DNA of 62,675 nt from Tolypothrix carrinoi HA7290-LM1 (GCA_019358935.1 JAHHIK010000043.1:1-62675), one strand, 5' to 3'; positions 5,780 through 21,214 are shown, counted from the first letter of the stretch. The notes: generated by a model not told the origin, from the sequence alone. Numbers and translations are program-made.

Positions 5780-6400
5780 GTGCTAACAGCTTTTACCGCA
5801 GGTTTATTATTAATCACAGTTTCCGAATTAGGAGATAAAACTTTTTTTATCGCCGCAATTTTAGCGATGCGGCACTCGCGACGGCTGGTATTAATCGGTG
5901 TGACAGCGGCTTTAGCTGCGATGACAATAATTTCTGTGGTAGCGGGACAAGCGGTATCTTTCTTGCCAAAGCTTTACGTTCATTACGCAGAAATTGTTTT
6001 ATTTATCGGCTTTGGTATCAAGCTGCTGTATGATGCAAATCGGATGTCGGCTTTGAGTTGTGATGCAGAAGTAGTAGGAGAGGCTAAAGAGGCGGTAGAA
6101 CAAGCAGAGAAGCAACTGCCCAAGAAAAAAACACCCCTGTCAATTATAATAGAAGCCTTTGTCTTAACATTTATGGCAGAGTGGGGCGATCGCACACAAT
6201 TTGCCACCATTGCTCTAGCCGCTAGCAATAACGCTTTTGGCGTAACCGTCGGTGCCATATTAGGACATTCTATTTGTGCAGTCATTGCCGTAAGTTGTGG
6301 ACGAATGATCGCCGGACGAATTTCCGAACGCCAACTTACCCTAATTGGTGGATGCTTATTTATCGTGTTTGGTGTACTTGCAGCAATCGAAGGGAGTTAG
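5780..6400 (+). CDS. TMEM165/GDT1 (UPF0016) family Mn2+/Ca2+ exporter, Mnx-like
   Basis: Two E-x-G-D-[KR]-T motifs (ELGDKT, EWGDRT); TAGGAG RBS before the GTG start. Confidence 0.95.
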   Translation: MLTAFTAGLLLITVSELGDKTFFIAAILAMRHSRRLVLIGVTAALAAMTIISVVAGQAVSFLPKLYVHYAEIVLFIGFGIKLLYDANRMSALSCDAEVVGEAKEAVEQAEKQLPKKKTPLSIIIEAFVLTFMAEWGDRTQFATIALAASNNAFGVTVGAILGHSICAVIAVSCGRMIAGRISERQLTLIGGCLFIVFGVLAAIEGS

Positions 6401-6406
6401 GAGGAG

Positions 6407-6600
6407 CGTGGTTAGTGGATAGTGGTTAGTGGATAGTGGTTAGTGGTTAGTGGATAGTGGTTAGTGGTTAGTGGATAGTGGATAGTGGTTAGTTGTCCCC
6501 CTGTCCCCTTGTCCTCCTTGTCCCCCTTGTCCCCCTTGTCCCCCTGTCCCCTTGTCCCCATCTCCCCCTCCCCCCATCTCCCCCTCCCCCCCTCTCCCCC
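6407..6600. repeat. STRR heptamer (GTGGTTA/GTGGATA)n followed by 8-9-mer (CCCCTTGT-type) repeats
   Basis: Direct reading; lies between convergent genes. Confidence 0.9.
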
Positions 6601-7470
6601 TCACGGTGTCGGAGAAGCCGTCGGGCTGGGTGAGGCTATTGCTTGTTGGTTAATTTGGTCTTTGTATTGAGCGGGTGCTAAAGTGGCAGCTTTGTCAAAT
6701 AAAGGTTTTGCCTCTTCAATTTTGCCTTGTTCTTTGACGAGCAACGCCTTTGCTAAAACCGGGCGAAAATCTTTAGCATCGCTTTTAATTGCTTGATCGT
6801 AAATAGAGAAAGCTTGAGTGTAGCGTTTTTGGGAAGCGTAGACGTTGCCCAAAAGTACTTGGACAGCGATCGCATCCACACTTCCCGGTTGAATTTTATT
6901 TGCCTGGGTTGAGGTAGTCAGCGTATCTTGCAGCAAACCGATCGCCGCTTCCGGGCGTTTTTGAGATAACAAAAGAGCCACCATGCCTTGTAAAGCTTCG
7001 ATATCCCCTGGTTTCGTTGCCAAAACAGAACGATAAGCTTGAGCAGCTCCTTCTTTATCGCCTATTTGCTGTTTTGCTTGCGCTAGTAGCACCGCGTATT
7101 TCGTTTGTTCTGGATTCAGCTTGACTAGCTTTTCTAAGGGTTCGATAACCGCTTGAATGTCAGCTGGTTGAATTTCACCTTTTCCTTTTTGACTCAGCAG
7201 CTGTAATCTAGCTTGTAATAACCCCTTAAGCGCGGCTTGATTTTCTGGTTCGCGTTGCAAAACTAATTCGTAACCCCGTACTTCGTCTTCCACTTTTGAT
7301 TTTGGGTCAGAAGCAGGCGAAGTGGCGACTTTGGCGCTACTGGTGTTTTGAGTTGGGCGTTGCGTATCATTAAATGCCGTAATTAAGGGAACCAAAGAAA
7401 CCCCGACAAAAGCAACTACTGCCAGCAACAGCACTACTTTAACCATCCAACGATTGCCTTGTTTAGACAC
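6601..7470 (-). CDS. Membrane-anchored tetratricopeptide repeat protein
   Basis: N-terminal hydrophobic segment and several TPR-like helical pairs (LLGNVYASQKRYTQAFSIYDQAI). Confidence 0.85.
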   Translation of the reverse strand: MSKQGNRWMVKVVLLLAVVAFVGVSLVPLITAFNDTQRPTQNTSSAKVATSPASDPKSKVEDEVRGYELVLQREPENQAALKGLLQARLQLLSQKGKGEIQPADIQAVIEPLEKLVKLNPEQTKYAVLLAQAKQQIGDKEGAAQAYRSVLATKPGDIEALQGMVALLLSQKRPEAAIGLLQDTLTTSTQANKIQPGSVDAIAVQVLLGNVYASQKRYTQAFSIYDQAIKSDAKDFRPVLAKALLVKEQGKIEEAKPLFDKAATLAPAQYKDQINQQAIASPSPTASPTP

Positions 7471-7847
7471 AAAACCGTCCTTCTTCTGAATAATGACACT
7501 ATCAGTAACACAAATGTGAAAGTTAAAAATTTTAAAAAGTTTGCGGAATACGGGTATTTAGCTGTGAAATTTATAACAATTAGCAATTTACACTGCTAAA
7601 GTAGGTGATGACTTTGGGGGAAATCCTCTGAAATTGTAGCTATGTTAAGCTGCCGAAACTAGTGTAAAAGCGTTAAATTACACATTTAGTATCTAAATGG
7701 TAAGTTTAGCGTTTAGAGTATCACACAGAGCGCTCTTTCGCGTGGCTAACTTGAAAGAAATATACTTTTAAGCGCCGCACAAACGCTCTTTTCAGCTGCC
7801 TTAGTAAAATCCCACAATGGGATGTGTCTCCGCCGCAAGGAGTTTAT

Positions 7848-9175: not shown

Positions 9176-10345
9176 TCAAAACTCTGTCCAGCGGTCTTGG
9201 GGTAAAAACGATCGCTCCATCGGAATTGGGGAAACTGCTTCTGTCAGGGTAAATGTACCAGCCTCAATCCACTGTTTCAATTCTTGTGCCACTTGTCTGG
9301 AAAGATACATACTTGCAAGGGGAGCAACACGCACTGTTTTACCTTCAATAGTGATTCGCCCAGATTTAAGTTGGGCGTAACTCACTAACCCAAAGGTGGG
9401 ACGGACGCGCCGAGGGATGGAAAAGTCTACTATCGGCGCTACTAAGTCTTTGTCAGTCACGCAAGCACGTTCTACGACTTGTTCGTTTAATACCGGAAGT
9501 GGTACGCCTACGCCTAACATTAAGGAAGGTCCGTAACTTTTGAAGTAACAACCGCGTACCCAACGCGCATCCATTTGTTTGGCATCGCCAATTAACGCTA
9601 AAGTGGCGGCAGGACCGATGGGTGTATGATTAGGTAATCGCTTTTGTAAGGGAAAGTGCTGAGTACCTTCCCATGATACATAGCCTACACCACCGCCTAA
9701 GAAAATTCGCGTACCAATGCCGATAAGCTGTAGTTCGGGGTCGTTGAGTAAAGGGGAAATCGCACCTGGGTTAGAGTAAACTGCATTCCCCAAACGCGGT
9801 TGTAGTGGACCGAGATAAGTGAAAAGTGGGCGATCGCCTCCATTCACCCCCACGATAAAATTTTGATAAAGATTGCGCGGATTAAATAAATAAAACTGAT
9901 TTATCGTTTCACGGGTAATTGTGGTTTCAAAGGTGGCACGGGGGTAACAATCTGTTACTTGTCCTTGTGCGCGTACATGTACGGGTTTGCCGGCGATTAA
10001 ATCTTCAATTACATGTCCACCACCGCGTTCCCGGACTTCTTCGCCGTCGGTGACTTCCACGGCACAGCTTGCACCTATGTATAAATCTACTGCCCCAAAA
10101 CCGGAATATACGGGGACACTATCTAACCAAGCGCGGCGAATTTTAATTGGTGGGTCAGTGTGTCCCAAGTTAATAATCGCACCTGATGATTCCATCGGCT
10201 CAAATGTGCCGGTGGTAATGACATCAGTTTCTTTGGCAACTTGAGTAACGCCGACTTCTGCAACTCGTGCTTTGAGTTCTTCAACAGTTAACACTACAGC
10301 ACGTTTGCGGCTAATTTTATCGTTAATTTCAGCAAGCGATCGCAT
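9176..10345 (-). CDS. Homocysteine biosynthesis protein (DUF39, L-aspartate semialdehyde sulfurtransferase-like)
   Basis: DVITTGTFEPMESSGA, GGGHVIEDLIAGK, TDCYPR, FNPRNLYQN, WEGTQH motifs. Confidence 0.9.
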   Translation of the reverse strand: MRSLAEINDKISRKRAVVLTVEELKARVAEVGVTQVAKETDVITTGTFEPMESSGAIINLGHTDPPIKIRRAWLDSVPVYSGFGAVDLYIGASCAVEVTDGEEVRERGGGHVIEDLIAGKPVHVRAQGQVTDCYPRATFETTITRETINQFYLFNPRNLYQNFIVGVNGGDRPLFTYLGPLQPRLGNAVYSNPGAISPLLNDPELQLIGIGTRIFLGGGVGYVSWEGTQHFPLQKRLPNHTPIGPAATLALIGDAKQMDARWVRGCYFKSYGPSLMLGVGVPLPVLNEQVVERACVTDKDLVAPIVDFSIPRRVRPTFGLVSYAQLKSGRITIEGKTVRVAPLASMYLSRQVAQELKQWIEAGTFTLTEAVSPIPMERSFLPQDRWTEF

Positions 10346-10641
10346 ATTTAAATGTAGCGAATTGGTTTAAAGTTCAATTTACTTCAAACTATAGTCAACA
10401 ATAGCTTAGTACGGCGTTACAGAAGTTGGTGTAAATTGAACCAGTAAATTGAAACGCATTAGGTAGTTGATATATTAGGATTAAGAAAAAGATTATACAG
10501 AAAGTTTCCGTATAATAAATAGTTAGGCTGCAAAGTATGGCTATTGTGGAAGACGAGTAAATAGTTAACTTTTCTCTTTTTAAACCGCTTAAAGTTGCTC
10601 AAGCCTGCTATGTTGTCAATAGTTGAGTTAAGCAGGTATTG

Positions 10642-11289
10642 ATGCAACATGTCACCCCCAAGGAAGCAGCAAAAATCCTTGGTGTCCACGTCTCCTCCCT
10701 TAGAAGATGGGAGAACGAAGGAAAGCTCAAAGCAATCCGGACACCAGGAGGTCAAAGAAGGTTCATCCTCGAAGAAATCGAAGAAGTCGCAGGTATCCCC
10801 AGGACAATTAGAACTATTTGTTACGGAAGGGTTTCGACTCATTCCCAATCAGACGATTTGCAGCGACAACTTGAACATTTACGCTCAAGATACCCAGAGG
10901 CTGAAGTTATTTCAGAAACTGGAAGCGGACTCAATTTCCGGAGGAAAAAATTCCTTGCAATTTTGGAACGAATCATCGACGGTGATATCCAACGTATTGT
11001 CGTTGCCCACCCTGACAGACTCGTTAGATTTGGATTTGAACTGGTTAAATGGTTATGCGAAAAATTTGAGTGCGAACTCGTGGTTCTCAATGACCGTAAA
11101 CTCAGTCCGGAAGCAGAACTCATTCAAGATATGTTGTCCATCGTCCACTGTTTCTCTAGTAGGTTATACGGGCTTAGAAAATACAAATCAAAGCTCAAAG
11201 AAGACTTACAAAAAGAAAGCTCGTCATTCGATATCCAAATCGACAAAACTTCAACCGAACAGTGTACAGAAAATCAGGCTATATCCTAG
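10642..11289 (+). CDS. tnpA: IS607 transposase (MerR-like HTH + serine recombinase)
   Basis: EAAKILGVHVSSLRRWENEGKL...RTPGGQRR HTH; YGRVST catalytic Ser; GSGLNF.RK; DRLVRFGFEL; SSRLYGLR. Confidence 0.95.
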   Translation: MQHVTPKEAAKILGVHVSSLRRWENEGKLKAIRTPGGQRRFILEEIEEVAGIPRTIRTICYGRVSTHSQSDDLQRQLEHLRSRYPEAEVISETGSGLNFRRKKFLAILERIIDGDIQRIVVAHPDRLVRFGFELVKWLCEKFECELVVLNDRKLSPEAELIQDMLSIVHCFSSRLYGLRKYKSKLKEDLQKESSSFDIQIDKTSTEQCTENQAIS

Positions 11290-12430
11290 CAAGGAATTAC
11301 ATCTAGTTTGGAAGCGATGGTTAGCTCAGTACCGTTATTATTACAACGAAACTATTAGTTTATTACGTTGTTATGACGGTGTTGAGAAACTTTCGGCTGA
11401 AATATTAGATAAGTTTTTGCAACGACTAGAAAGCTTGCCGGATTGGGTAAAAACAATACCTGGTCATCAACGGCAAGAGGCTTGCTTTGAGGCTTACGAT
11501 GCATTTAATCGAGCAAAGAAAGATGGAGGTTGGGCTAAGTTTAAATCTGTCAAAGCTACAACTCAAACAATACAATTCAAAGTTGGTAACTACAAAAATG
11601 GCACTTGGTATTGTAATACAACTAAAGGATTAAAGTTCATCACGATTAATCAAACCGTCCCAGATCAATGCGAATATGGTACAGAGCTTGTATACCGTCG
11701 TGGTAAGTGGTTTGGGTGTTTTCCTTGTGTTGAAGAAGTTATTACTACTGGTAGCGATAGAGTAATTGCACTTGACCCAGGAAATCGCACTTTTTTGACG
11801 GGGTTCGATGGTGAGAACGTCTTAGAAATTGGTAAGGGAGATATCGGACGCATACAACGCTTGTGTCAGCACCTTGATAAATTAATAAGCCGTTCAACCA
11901 AAGTTAAATGCCGTCACCGCAGAAAGATGCGACTTGCTGCAAATAGAATTAGAGAAAGAATTCAAAGCTTAATTAAAGAGTTGCATAACAAGGCGACTAA
12001 CTTGCTAGTTAATTCTTACAAAGTAATATTCCTACCTACTTTTGATTCGAGCCAAATGGTAATCAAAATTAGAAATGGGAAAAAACGCAGAATTAACAAT
12101 AAATCAGCTAGGCAAATGTTAACTCTTTCTCATCACCGCTTTGAACGACATCTTAAACAAGCGGCATCTAAAAAAGATGTAATAGTCGTTCTTTGTAACG
12201 AGTCATACACCTCTAAAACCTGCGGCAACTGCGGTCATATTCACCACAAACTTGGTGGCTCTAAAATCTTTAAATGCTCACGTTGCGGAATTAAAATTTC
12301 TCGTGATGTAAATGGCGCACGTAATATTTTATTGCGTGCTTTGCAAGCAACTGCCTTTACCGTGACGCACGATAGAATCGTACTTTCAGATGAATCTGAA
12401 TTGACGGATGCCATAGTTAGTCAGGTTTAA
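10649..12430 (+). CDS. tnpB: RNA-guided endonuclease TnpB of pro-Fanzor/Fanzor2-like type (true start uncertain)
   Basis: KIRLYP; RuvC-I ALDPG; IFLPTF where the canonical RuvC-II Glu normally sits; NESYTSKTC; CxxC...CxxC; RDVNGARNI. Confidence 0.93.
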   Translation: MSPPRKQQKSLVSTSPPLEDGRTKESSKQSGHQEVKEGSSSKKSKKSQVSPGQLELFVTEGFRLIPNQTICSDNLNIYAQDTQRLKLFQKLEADSISGGKNSLQFWNESSTVISNVLSLPTLTDSLDLDLNWLNGYAKNLSANSWFSMTVNSVRKQNSFKICCPSSTVSLVGYTGLENTNQSSKKTYKKKARHSISKSTKLQPNSVQKIRLYPSKELHLVWKRWLAQYRYYYNETISLLRCYDGVEKLSAEILDKFLQRLESLPDWVKTIPGHQRQEACFEAYDAFNRAKKDGGWAKFKSVKATTQTIQFKVGNYKNGTWYCNTTKGLKFITINQTVPDQCEYGTELVYRRGKWFGCFPCVEEVITTGSDRVIALDPGNRTFLTGFDGENVLEIGKGDIGRIQRLCQHLDKLISRSTKVKCRHRRKMRLAANRIRERIQSLIKELHNKATNLLVNSYKVIFLPTFDSSQMVIKIRNGKKRRINNKSARQMLTLSHHRFERHLKQAASKKDVIVVLCNESYTSKTCGNCGHIHHKLGGSKIFKCSRCGIKISRDVNGARNILLRALQATAFTVTHDRIVLSDESELTDAIVSQV

Positions 12431-12527
12431 TCGCTTTGATTAGCTTAAAAGTTGCACTAAATGATTCAATTTCTACAATGGAGAAACTCTGGAATCAAAG
12501 TTGCCTAAAATATGAGGAAACTGATGT

Positions 12528-13388
12528 ATGGAAAGTAAATGGATTAGTCATAACGGAGTTCGCCTTTTCTCCGAATCTTTCGGTACTCCAGACGATCCAC
12601 CAATTTTATTAATCATGGGAGCAATGGCTTCAGCCGTGTGGTGGGCGGAAGACTTCTGCTGCCAATTAGCTGCTCTGGGTCGCTATGTAATTCGCTACGA
12701 TCACCGAGACACAGGACGCTCAACAAGTTACGAGCCAGGTCACATTTACTATTCTGTTGAAGATCTAGCGGATGATGCTTTTTGTGTTCTCGATGGCTAT
12801 GGAATTCAGAGTGCCCATTTAGTGGGGATATCGCTAGGAGGATTCCTAGCTCAACTCATGACGCTCAAGCGTCCTCAACGGGTCAAAAGTCTGACGTTAA
12901 TCGCCTCGGAACCCTTGGCTGAGACTGATCCGACCATGCCAGGGATCGATTCATCTGTCCTGGAATACCATGCAAAAGCCAGTGAACTGGATTGGGCAAA
13001 CCGTGAGGCAGTGATTGAATATCAAATTGGTGCGTGGCGATTGATTTCCGGTTCAGCCCATCCGTTTGATGAATCAGCTATCCGCGAATTAGCTGGGGCT
13101 GACTTTGATCGTACTCCCAATCTCATGACGACCTTTAATCATGCCTTGCTTCAAGGTGGAGAAAAATGGTTTAACCGCCTCCACGAAATCGCTGTACCAA
13201 CTCTGGTTATTCATGGCACAGAAGATTGTGTGTTACCCTATGCCCATAGCTTGGCATTACAAGCAGAGATCCAAGATGCTGTATTACTACCATTGCCAGG
13301 AACAGGACACGAACTACATCGCGATGACTGGTCTGTTATTCTTGAAGCGATAGAAAAGCACACTGTATCACAGCAAGAAACAGCCTAA
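12528..13388 (+). CDS. Alpha/beta hydrolase, EstX/EstT/RdmC-like esterase
   Basis: [23 protein letters not shown], nucleophile elbow GISLGG, HGTED, GTGHE catalytic triad motifs. Confidence 0.88.
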
Positions 13389-13469: not shown

Positions 13470-13516
13470 CGCAATCACATAAAATGCGGTAATCATAAGT
13501 GATTAACCGGACTTGA

Positions 13517-13684
13517 TATAAGATAACGTGGCTCTGTTATAAGATAACGTGGCTCTGTTATAAGATAACGTGGCTCTGTTATAAGATAACGTGGCTCTGT
13601 TATAAGATAACGTCGCTCTGATATAAGATAACGTGGCTCTGTTATAAGATAACGTGGCTCTGTTATAAGATAACGTCGCTCTGC
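13517..13684. repeat. Tandem array, 8 x 21 bp (TATAAGATAACGT[G/C]GCTCTG[T/A/C])
   Basis: Counted directly; no spacers. Confidence 0.95.
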
Positions 13685-13970
13685 CAAATATAAAACGATC
13701 GCGACTTATTATTAAAACCTTGCTCTTATACCGTTTCACAAAAATCTTATACAATTCGCTCCCCCTGCTCCTCAGACTAGCCCTGCTACCCAAGTGCCTG
13801 CCTTCACCCGTCAAAATTAGGTAGGGTTGAGTATTACTACCACAGGGCGGAAATAAAGCTACCATTCAAAAAAGCCAGAAAGCTTGTCTTTCAAGCTTTT
13901 TGAATGCTTCAAAAAAATTTCAATGAGTCAAAAAGAGCAAAGACGATTTTTGTCAACCACGGCTATTTGC

Positions 13971-18970: not shown

Positions 18971-21214
18971 TCAATTTGGTAATGTGAAATAGAAAGTGCT
19001 ACCTTCGCCATAAGTAGATTCTACCCAAATTTTGCCCCCGTGACGCTCGACAATTTTTTTGGCAATAGTTAAACCGGCGCCGGTACCACCACCATATTGA
19101 CTTGCTGTGTGCAGACGTTTGAAAATGCGAAAAACATTATCTAGATGTTTTTGCCTAATTCCGATACCATTGTCTCGCACATAGAAAGTGATTGTGGGTT
19201 GGTTTGTTGCTTCTTGGTCTAAAAAGCCAATTTCTACTGATTTATTCGCTTTCTCGTTGTATTTAATGGCATTGCTGATTAAATTACTAAATACTTCACT
19301 CATCTGAATGCGATCGCATTTCACATCCGGTAATCGTCGGCAAATGCGAATATCTACATTTTTAGTTTCTTTTAGGCTAATTTTTAATACTTCTATCACA
19401 CTTTCTACTAATTCGTTCAAGTTAGTTCGTCGCATTACAAGTTCAACTCGTCCTAAACGAGAAAAATGCAGTAGAGAATTAATCAAATCTTCCATTCGCT
19501 GAGTCAGACGCACCAGAGTTTGCAGTTTAGAAACTCCATCTTCATGCAGCGAATCAGCGTAATCTTCAATCAGAAATGTTGAGTAATTGTGAATTCCCCG
19601 TAGCGGTTCTTTTAAATCGTGAGAAGCAATGTAAGCAAAAGCATCTAATTCTCTGTTACTGCGTTCTAATTCGACATTAATTTTTGCTAATTCATCCGCT
19701 TTTTTGAGTACCATTGCTACAATAGCGCTTTTAAGTTCTAAAGCACCATCAATTTCACATTTTCTCCAAGGTAAAGACTTAAATCGTACCGTTTCTTGCC
19801 ACATTTTAAAAGATTTACGCGGTGATAGATGCAAACTACCATTTTCTTTTACTTCCACTGGTTTGTTGGGATTACCCCCCCATTTTAAAGTTTGAATCAC
19901 TTCTGGACGAAACCACAAAATCCAATGTTTTTGACTTTGAGCAATGGCAAGTGCTAACATTCCACTAGCAACATCTTGAAAATTTTCTGATGCGGGATAA
20001 ACCTTAATGAGTGAATCTGTATAAAAAACGTTATCGTTATTAATTTGCGTCGCTAACCAGTTTATTAAGTCTTGAATCTCCGCTTTTAATGGTGTTTTGC
20101 CAAACAATAGCAATTCTTGATTCAAGCAAACAGCAACACCTTCAGCGCTGACTAATTCTAATAATTCATTTTTCCGCTCAATTAAAGCATCTACCAAATT
20201 TTTTGTTTCGGAAATAGTCTCAAAAAACTTTGATTGAATTGTCTTGAGTTTGAGTTTGTAATCTAAGTCTTCATTTTCTTCTTTAGTCCCAATGTCTAAA
20301 GACATTACATGTCCCAAAAATTCGCAGGCAGTGCGTATATAATAGGGTACATACTTAGGTGTATTATGATGACAGGCAATCAATCCCCATAATTTTTTAT
20401 TTTTGATTAAAGAAATTGACATCGAAGCGCTAACGCCCATATTCTGCAAATACTCAACATGTATGGGAGAAACACTCCTCAAGACTGAATAACTTAAATC
20501 TATTGGTTCATTAGTAACTGAATTATGAGTAGGAATCAGTTCTACAGGTTGATAATTAACGTCAGGAATTAACCGCAACCAATTAAGAATGTATAATTGC
20601 TTTGCTTGTTTGGGAATATCTGATGCGGGATAGTGTAAACTCAAATAAGGAGTCAAGCTTTCTAATCTATCTTCGGCTATGACCTTACCAGCGCCTTCCT
20701 CATCAAATCGATAGATCATAACTCGGTCAAATTCTGTAATTTTTCGCACTTGTTTGGCTAAAACTTGACATAATTCTTGTAAAGTCAGTGTATTTTGTAT
20801 TTGCTTAAGAGGGGCTTTGACTAACTGATAAAAAGTAAAAAAGTCTTGATCGTCTTGTGATGTAACAGGTAATAATTCCAGAATTACAACATCTTGAGAA
20901 TGATGTATAATTCCATCAAATAAGAAAGTATTCTTGGGAGTTGTTAAAGATATTTTGAGGGGATTGATGCTTTCAAAATCGGTAGAAAAACATTGTTTAA
21001 TCTGAGAAATTTGCCGGACATCCAGTAATTCTTTAAGTTGTTTGCCTAGCAATTCTTGGGGATGGATACCAATGAAATCAAAAGTATTTTTGCTAACTTG
21101 TAAAATAGTAAATTCTGGTTCTTGTAAAACAAAAAGAATACCGTATGGTTGAATTAAACCGGGAATGTGAATTTGTTCGCGATCGCAGTTAGTTAAATCT
21201 ACATTTTTTTGCAT
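18971..21214 (-). CDS. Bacteriophytochrome-type histidine kinase (PAS-GAF-PHY-HisKA-HATPase), AphB/BphB-like, predicted biliverdin-binding
   Basis: N-terminal TNCDREQIHIPG Cys; DRVMIYRF; YPASDIP; LRSVSPIH (Ile where Cph1 has the GAF Cys); PRKSF tongue; SHDLKEPL. Confidence 0.93.
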   Translation of the reverse strand: MQKNVDLTNCDREQIHIPGLIQPYGILFVLQEPEFTILQVSKNTFDFIGIHPQELLGKQLKELLDVRQISQIKQCFSTDFESINPLKISLTTPKNTFLFDGIIHHSQDVVILELLPVTSQDDQDFFTFYQLVKAPLKQIQNTLTLQELCQVLAKQVRKITEFDRVMIYRFDEEGAGKVIAEDRLESLTPYLSLHYPASDIPKQAKQLYILNWLRLIPDVNYQPVELIPTHNSVTNEPIDLSYSVLRSVSPIHVEYLQNMGVSASMSISLIKNKKLWGLIACHHNTPKYVPYYIRTACEFLGHVMSLDIGTKEENEDLDYKLKLKTIQSKFFETISETKNLVDALIERKNELLELVSAEGVAVCLNQELLLFGKTPLKAEIQDLINWLATQINNDNVFYTDSLIKVYPASENFQDVASGMLALAIAQSQKHWILWFRPEVIQTLKWGGNPNKPVEVKENGSLHLSPRKSFKMWQETVRFKSLPWRKCEIDGALELKSAIVAMVLKKADELAKINVELERSNRELDAFAYIASHDLKEPLRGIHNYSTFLIEDYADSLHEDGVSKLQTLVRLTQRMEDLINSLLHFSRLGRVELVMRRTNLNELVESVIEVLKISLKETKNVDIRICRRLPDVKCDRIQMSEVFSNLISNAIKYNEKANKSVEIGFLDQEATNQPTITFYVRDNGIGIRQKHLDNVFRIFKRLHTASQYGGGTGAGLTIAKKIVERHGGKIWVESTYGEGSTFYFTLPN

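Follow-up and report, generated by a model that had tools for sequence, protein, structure and literature searches.

We found that one stretch of DNA in an intact IS607 element of Tolypothrix carrinoi HA7290-LM1 encodes, with high probability, both the transposase TnpA and, in a second reading frame, a predicted N-terminal domain of Fanzor2 type that belongs to TnpB, which is likely an active RNA-guided nuclease. Our confidence extends to the mechanism and to the origin by overprinting that are set out below. The window (the whole stretch of DNA that was analysed, 62,675 nt; GCA_019358935.1 JAHHIK010000043.1:1-62675) contains the following features.

10552..10554, + strand: GAC target motif, with AC as the inferred crossover core and GAC as the predicted TAM; before the left end in 14 of 17 aligned rows
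10555..12457, + strand: IS607 element, intact, 1903 bp with the AC core counted once; limits from divergence outside in three genome copies and other relatives
10555..10641, + strand: left end, non-coding, with short direct repeats (15-nt repeat pair at 10557 and 10615); from alignment
10642..11289, + strand: tnpA, serine recombinase of IS607 type with 215 aa; has a MerR-type HTH and a resolvase domain, the latter with Ser65 of YGRVS; PF00376, PF00239
10649..12430, + strand: tnpB frame, 593 codons from its first ATG (putative start codon), +1 relative to tnpA, which it overlaps with its first 214 codons
10952..11257, + strand: predicted overprinted Fanzor2-type N-terminal domain, residues ~102-203, with FW helix, LP, NSWF and basic thumb-like stretch; from profile and structure alignment to ApmFz2 53-130 and from selection tests
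11075..11086, + strand: N143-S-W-F, aligned with ApmFz2 N82-S-W-Y by the family profile
11774..11782, + strand: RuvC-I D376-P-G, by motif; aligns with ApmFz2 D324
12035..12037, + strand: P463 at the canonical RuvC-II Glu position (VIFLPTF), by profile alignment and motif
12200..12202, + strand: alternative catalytic Glu E518 (NESYTSKTC), six residues before C525; aligns with ApmFz2 E467
12221..12286, + strand: C4 zinc finger, Cys 525, 528, 543 and 546, by motif and Pfam
12305..12307, + strand: RuvC-III D553 (RDVNGARN), by motif; aligns with ApmFz2 D501
12317..12457, + strand: predicted omega-RNA scaffold; hairpin 12317-12339, helix 12347-12352 with 12450-12455
12458..12477, + strand: predicted guide, in the host DNA that separates the element from the esterase gene; assumed to be as long as in other TnpBs

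Alignment of genomic copies, which the first-pass annotation had proposed for fixing the ends and inferring the TAM, placed the left end at 10555 and the right end at 12457, not near 12480 as had been claimed. On the right, conservation breaks off behind TTGCAC, at 12457, in each of the 15 ends shown (22 tried), and on the left it begins directly after GAC, the three rows that depart from this being diverged or rearranged. The base preceding GAC was usually a purine (A 9, G 3, C 1; 13 loci). At two sister copies, on contigs C73 and C178, the interrupted host frames continue through the junction with AC counted once. This makes AC the core and GAC the target, and a filled right end reads CAC. 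No target duplication was found besides the AC core, and no terminal inverted pair was present among the 25 longest of 139 repeat pairs, so the element has the shared dinucleotide and lacks the terminal inverted repeats and target duplication, as expected of IS607. Most IS607 members end in GG, according to a passage of a 2026 review, and the AC core of this subfamily is a deviation from typical IS607 rather than an exclusion from the family. The ISXfa1 nuclease has the TAM GGG and spares the right end CGG (Yoon et al. 2023, bioRxiv 10.1101/2023.08.09.552727); because this pair parallels GAC and CAC, the TAM of the present nuclease is predicted, by analogy, to be GAC.

The genome holds two further copies at ~82% identity and one distant copy. 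The C73 copy (G000:C73 31401-33305, L037) is intact and breaks the frame of a gene resembling, by eye, a zinc metallopeptidase. The C178 copy (G000:C178 ~5870-7770, - strand) has one stop in tnpB and an altered 3' end, and interrupts, by eye, another transposase gene. The fourth and distant clade member (G000:C80 ~19520-21160) has a TnpA 43% identical; the overlap recurs in it, beginning near tnpA codon 21, and some of the zinc-finger Cys are missing. No empty site or circle joint was seen in four contig sets, which as contigs cannot show absence. The 931 bases downstream, sought for the empty site of the 10555..12457 copy, were not found in the 40 related genomes searched, and the search of the genome itself yielded no unbroken flank for any of its three copies. 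Promoter-like sites numbered 6 against 5.0 expected, and no terminator was found.

Upstream, a homocysteine biosynthesis enzyme (9176-10345, - strand; PF01837, 500 bits) is divergent from the element and lies 209 nt from its left end. On the 3' side, a hydrolase (12528-13388, + strand) reaches 439 bits on the NCBIfam model for alpha/beta-fold macrolide esterases (cut-off 420); a DNA search of 40 related genomes did not find it, a hint that it was recently acquired. A tandem repeat at ~13490-13870 is visible as repeated short peptides in two reverse-strand ORFs.

TnpA scored 198 bits on NF033518 (cut-off 110) in an intact frame, and its PF00376 and PF00239 matches give the N-terminal HTH and serine recombinase domains that define an IS607 transposase. 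The tnpB frame is also whole, as the first-pass annotation had claimed in linking an intact nuclease to an intact IS607 recombinase. Its account of the catalytic residues likewise held: RuvC-I is D376-P-G at 11774, the canonical RuvC-II Glu is replaced by P463 at 12035, the alternative Glu is E518 at 12200, six residues ahead of C525, and RuvC-III is intact with D553 at 12305. In the profile alignment with a TnpB chain of canonical type (9yyg), the Pro of LPTF is paired with the E of that chain's VEDL. The protein passes the guided_TnpB model (133 bits, cut-off 100) and fails the IS200 and IS607 TnpB models. Canonical IS200/IS605 elements have a Y1 TnpA and the canonical RuvC-II Glu; here the TnpA is a serine recombinase, a Pro occupies the Glu position, and TnpB scores 70 bits on NF038281 against a cut-off of 425. 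TnpB matches the published pro-Fanzor/Fanzor2 sequence pattern, which less than 1% of the more than 140,000 TnpBs in the set of Yoon et al. fit (bioRxiv 10.1101/2023.08.09.552727). The DPG motif and the loss of the canonical Glu in favour of one six residues before the zinc finger are both pro-Fanzor characters. By analogy, the tnpB product is likely an active RNA-guided nuclease.

In a quick-method tree of 79 proteins, built from the last 390 residues without ApmFz2 or named references, a branch with SH-aLRT 96 parts 61 clade rows from 18 other TnpBs of the same genome. The clade rows are cyanobacterial, giant-virus-type (20, of which 12 are GVMAG-named and 8 were assigned by us) or from other viral contigs. 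TnpB thus groups with giant-virus proteins apart from the genome's other TnpBs, in keeping with the phylogeny that had been suggested as a check, and clusters as pro-Fanzors do with Fanzor2. All 15 loci of relatives in the genome collection are cyanobacterial, and the clade is present in 21 of the 301 genomes of the phylum searched, across 15 genera. Table S5 of Yoon et al. 2023, in the portion available, lists Scytonema, Aetokthonos and Anabaenopsis relatives among its pro-Fanzors (10 of 12 places shown for one motif), and a locus from one listed species matched ours at 82%. The pro-Fanzor label given in the first-pass annotation is thus borne out by the motifs, the IS607 TnpA, the cyanobacterial relatives, the tree, the best match to ApmFz2 and the Table S5 labels; because that table lists close relatives as pro-Fanzor, the group is also one already described. 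Fanzor2 proper is encoded in eukaryotes or their viruses; the present gene has a bacterial genome context.

Pro-Fanzors have been defined as shorter than Fanzor2 and devoid of its N-terminal segment. Here, the tnpB frame is open through the entire tnpA gene, in the +1 frame, and the selected open frame adds ~100-200 residues. An ORF overlapping all of tnpA was implied by the first-pass start coordinate, yet went unremarked there. We compared 39 elements with TnpAs below 70% identity (median 44%), namely cyanobacterial clade loci and 30 viral-contig loci picked for a stop-free tnpA, thinned to that identity. Over tnpA codons 86-195 these had 0 stops in the +1 frame against 301 expected, and 267 in the +2 frame. 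Seen and expected +1 stops were 47 and 52 in codons 1-20, 11 and 44 in codons 21-50, and 6 and 58 in codons 51-85. The 48 cyanobacterial loci examined comprised 28 clade loci with intact tnpA, 8 without tnpA, 11 with a short or broken tnpA and 1 control; in all 28 of the first kind, +1 stops were confined to codon 20 or earlier.

Other IS607 transposase genes do not keep this frame open. Among 30 cyanobacterial NF033518 loci found by TnpA family alone, 27 had 5-17 stops in the +1 frame, two had none (both of DPG type) and one had a single stop; DPG occurred in 0 of the 15 stop-bearing loci that had a long downstream ORF. The viral loci comprised the 80 best of 478 matches and the 80 best of 429, a choice that favours close relatives; in the resulting unselected listing of 160, 44 had a near-full tnpA, 36 of them without a +1 stop and all of these with a DPG nuclease in frame +1, and the other 8, without such a nuclease in that frame, had 4-31 stops. 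These contigs were reached by profile searches, a single-protein search of them having given no matches.

The constraint on the second frame is a protein signal beyond stop avoidance. Across the 39 elements, residues were kept far more often than TnpA's own residues and the absence of stops would force: S144 in 38 (11.4 expected), F146 in 38 (12.9), W145 in 36 (14.4), L117 in 39 (17.8) and P120 in 31 (7.6), with W106 also far above expectation. The corresponding z values are overstated, because kin are not independent. Fourfold-site divergence in tnpA was 0.18 over codons 86-190 and 0.32 over codons 5-85, against 0.43 in tnpB-only DNA (10 close copies). Thus, purifying selection acts on the second frame.

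With a loose cut-off, a profile of the overlapped stretch built from cyanobacterial loci found 102 of the 150 proteins in the library, and many of the matches were strong. Among the 80 best viral matches, 16 loci had a whole nuclease frame with only a stop-ridden tnpA remnant beneath the N-terminal domain, and in most of these the nuclease frame starts ~10-15 residues before the FW motif. In 23 loci where the domain lies under a near-full tnpA, the FW-to-SWF span was 43 residues; in 6 freed loci it was 35-39 or 61 (29 of the 80 matched the pattern). Six loci of giant-virus type (L095, L097, L101, L117, L122, L127) carry tnpA on the opposite strand, and most of their nucleases retain a shortened N-terminal domain. 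The five of these tnpAs that were scored have a closed +1 frame with 15-31 stops, and no clear domain remnant was found in the +1 frame of the opposite-strand genes (one weak match, E 0.07).

The overlapped stretch is homologous to the N-terminal domain of ApmFz2. Residues 53-130 of ApmFz2 form a domain unseen in other TnpB structures and called unique, its origin not being given in the available part of the structure paper, which also reports that Asn82 and Ser83 contact the omega-RNA pseudoknot (Schargel et al., PMC11832414). The N-terminal profile matched 9B0L residues 54-170 (E 1e-14), and other TnpBs were matched only from their first strand. Residues 102-570 of an AlphaFold model align with 9B0L 53-518 (VIA; Z 23.9, rmsd 5.3 over 415 residues), and the ISDra2 TnpB and Cas12f chains align with it only from ~201 (VIA). 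The model is confident from residue 201; most of residues 1-200 have pLDDT below 50, except for islands at ~103-121 and 140-156. The N-terminal domain of Fanzor2, with its RuvC-R and thumb parts, therefore has a counterpart here, the thumb equivalence being by position and charge only. Because this domain is written inside tnpA, the earlier description of the nuclease as compact is probably wrong, and the protein is likely ~500-590 aa.

These results bear on whether the element is an ordinary short pro-Fanzor, in which TnpB would start near the end of tnpA (~390-400 aa) and the open +1 frame would be a by-product of TnpA codon use or of RNA or DNA constraint. One database entry for the gene is indeed 399 aa and begins at residue 195, eight pro-Fanzor-labelled rows among the Table S5 close relatives are shown at ~380-401 aa, the supplement of Yoon et al. 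calls pro-Fanzors shorter, and canonical TnpB functions from the same starting position. However, zero stops were seen where 301 were expected, the +1 frame is closed in other IS607 tnpAs, and the domain outlives tnpA and matches a solved RNA-contacting domain. The 399-aa entry, moreover, begins at an Ile codon, and from M1 to the WED strand the frame has no further ATG except M148. We therefore regard a short TnpB as very improbable and read the word shorter in the pro-Fanzor definition as an annotation artefact. Database entries usually begin after the overlapped stretch; another entry for this gene has 593 aa and begins at 10649.

For the full-length nuclease we infer a start at 10649, 7 nt beyond the ATG of tnpA, since no other ATG of the frame precedes the conserved FW motif. 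We go no further than this because residues 1-85 are weakly constrained and the 5' limit of the frame varies among relatives, from before tnpA codon 1 to codon 79. Two other starts were rejected: M148 would remove the invariant W145 and the FW helix, and TTG103, which lies behind GGAGG, is not kept in relatives. The left end holds a likely ribosome-binding site, which both start codons may share.

Alternatively, ribosomes translating tnpA might shift by +1 into the domain, or translation might begin at an internal non-ATG codon around 85-103; the product would then be a TnpA-HTH fusion or a ~500-aa protein rather than one of 593 aa. Such a route would suit the poor conservation and predicted disorder of residues 1-85, the freed relatives that begin only ~10-15 residues ahead of the FW motif, and a likely ribosome-binding site that, as read from the sequence, is better spaced for the tnpA ATG. 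We consider it unlikely all the same, since tnpA codons 21-85 already show a shortage of stops (17 seen, 102 expected) that sets in gradually rather than at a sharp edge, an in-frame ATG lies upstream of the FW motif in 37 of 37 elements where the motif was located, and the ATG at +7 is retained in close relatives.

The first-pass annotation had put the omega-RNA at about 12300-12480; the region was about right, with a predicted scaffold at 12317..12457. The 158 nt ahead of the right end fold with z = -2.05. In the helix 12347-12352/12450-12455, 5 of 6 pairs show changes on both sides in an 11-sequence alignment, the changes being supplied by only 3 diverged sequences and the helix being partly coding. 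For the two helices tested, 0 of 500 shuffles reached the covariation score and slid controls collapsed. The 3' strand of the long-range helix adjoins the guide, where ApmFz2 has its pseudoknot, so that the predicted RNA has the structured right end with pairing beside the guide that is found in Fanzor2 and TnpB systems. An Rfam search returned no family and only one chance-level match. The guide would derive from the 70-nt gap before the hydrolase ATG, which the first-pass annotation took to be the hydrolase leader. In the diverged relatives L021 (right end), L046 and L020, the letters adjoining the right end change together with their pairing partner, which suggests that other core dinucleotides and TAMs occur within the clade.

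From IS607 and Fanzor2 work, we propose that TnpA would excise and insert the element as a double-stranded circle through the AC core. TnpB, translated from the ATG at 10649, would bind RNA from the 3' end of its own gene together with ~17-20 nt of flanking DNA, and the overprinted domain would brace RuvC and grip the RNA helix beside the guide. By the same analogy, TnpB would cut an empty site (GAC plus guide match) with D376, E518 and D553, repair would restore the element, and the filled right end, reading CAC, would be spared.

If the architecture were right, the copy might still be non-functional, or the nuclease might bind without cutting. The three genome copies are only ~82% alike and so give no sign of very recent movement, the C178 copy carries the tnpB stop and changed 3' end described above, and no assay of a cyanobacterial pro-Fanzor was found in the parts of the literature covered. 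Against this, both frames, the three catalytic residues, the four Cys, both ends and the RNA helix are all intact at 10555..12457, and ApmFz2, with the same triad, cuts DNA and requires E467 (Jiang 2023). Either case is, in our judgement, quite improbable.

An older, widespread TnpA fold together with a clade-confined domain is the usual argument for the second frame being the newer. Most likely, the domain was overprinted on an older tnpA and later freed from it in some viral lineages. In the TnpA tree the overlapped elements do not form one clade: non-overlapped forms fall both outside and among them, four of the latter (L217, L218 of G000:C50, L224 and L233) with local support of 87-90. In these four the tnpB partner has perhaps been swapped. 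Because the tree gives no single overlapped clade, the case for a direction of origin is built on distribution instead of a rooted tree. The opposite history would have the overlap originate in giant viruses or phages and reach cyanobacteria only afterwards, making the element a descendant of Fanzor2; we consider this somewhat unlikely. The overlap is common to giant-virus contigs, cyanobacterial rows fall in more than one group among viral-contig rows in the nuclease tree, and the supplement of Yoon et al. has pro-Fanzors nested inside Fanzor2 with a direction that cannot be fixed; on the other side, TnpA and IS607 are broad in prokaryotes and the clade is spread over the 21 genomes and 15 genera noted above. 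The three main groups within the clade are not resolved in the nuclease tree, which supports neither direction.

Going beyond overprinting in this element, we consider it moderately probable that the Fanzor2 N-terminal domain, with the basic disordered stretch later read as an NLS, was born de novo by overprinting of an IS607 transposase gene. The whole pro-Fanzor clade would then be dual-coding and annotated 100-200 residues too short, the two starts 7 nt apart would share one ribosome-binding site and set the transposase:nuclease ratio, and the GAC TAM would be unlike the known G-rich IS607/Fanzor2 TAMs. This would supply an origin for the domain called unique in the Fanzor2 structure paper, and would be a rare case in which the birth of a folded domain in a second frame can be traced through stages that survive today: elements with full overlap, others whose tnpA has decayed while the domain above it is intact, and others whose tnpA now lies on the opposite strand. 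A further consequence would be that pro-Fanzor editors cloned from database annotation are likely truncated proteins.

The catalytic rearrangement was already known; the points of interest are the dual-coded N-terminal domain and the AC/GAC target. Like the pro-Fanzors of Yoon et al. 2023 (PMC10711439; bioRxiv 10.1101/2023.08.09.552727), the element has DPG, the shifted Glu, an IS607 TnpA and cyanobacterial relatives. Unlike them as treated there, namely as shorter than Fanzor2 and without the N-terminal segment, it has this region inside tnpA, which would remove the sole discernible difference between pro-Fanzors and Fanzors stated in that supplement (PMC10711439). Some sequences in the tables of that paper do contain the N-terminal domain, and the word overlap is absent from the journal text and supplement in the form available (PMC10711439). 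In our literature search, figures aside, whose locus drawings could show the overlap, no published description of a tnpA/tnpB overlap of this kind was found; one paper with both Fanzor and overprinting, in the text available, uses the terms for unrelated genes (PMC11071296).

ISArma1 and the eukaryotic IS607-like elements are similar in that cyanobacterial IS607 is closest to the eukaryotic copies and IS607 is said to consist of two ORFs that overlap (Gilbert and Cordaux 2013, PMC3673617). That description, in the part available, gives the overlap without extent, frame or function, and reports a 100-aa N-terminal insertion in an amoeba ORFB that is not linked to ORFA.

Canonical IS607 elements (ISXfa1, H. 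pylori IS607 and the C50 element) share the serine recombinase, the lack of terminal inverted repeats and target duplication, the dinucleotide core, and a right end that differs from the TAM at the third base (CGG and GGG in ISXfa1, CAC and GAC here). They differ in having the canonical Glu, a GG core and a tnpB that begins at the end of tnpA; the C50 element of the same genome has a 16-nt tnpA/tnpB overlap and 25 stops in the +1 frame.

The best PDB match, by sequence (profile E 1e-66), Foldseek and VIA, is the mimivirus Fanzor2 ApmFz2 (L79; PDB 9B0L; PMC11832414, PMC10530073), whose own locus was not identified among the viral-contig matches. It shares with the present TnpB the catalytic triad, the N-terminal domain with its NSW motif, and the domain order, at ~20-22% identity. 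ApmFz2 has a GGG TAM and a 247-nt RNA (PMC11832414), whereas a GAC TAM and an RNA of ~140-160 nt are predicted here.
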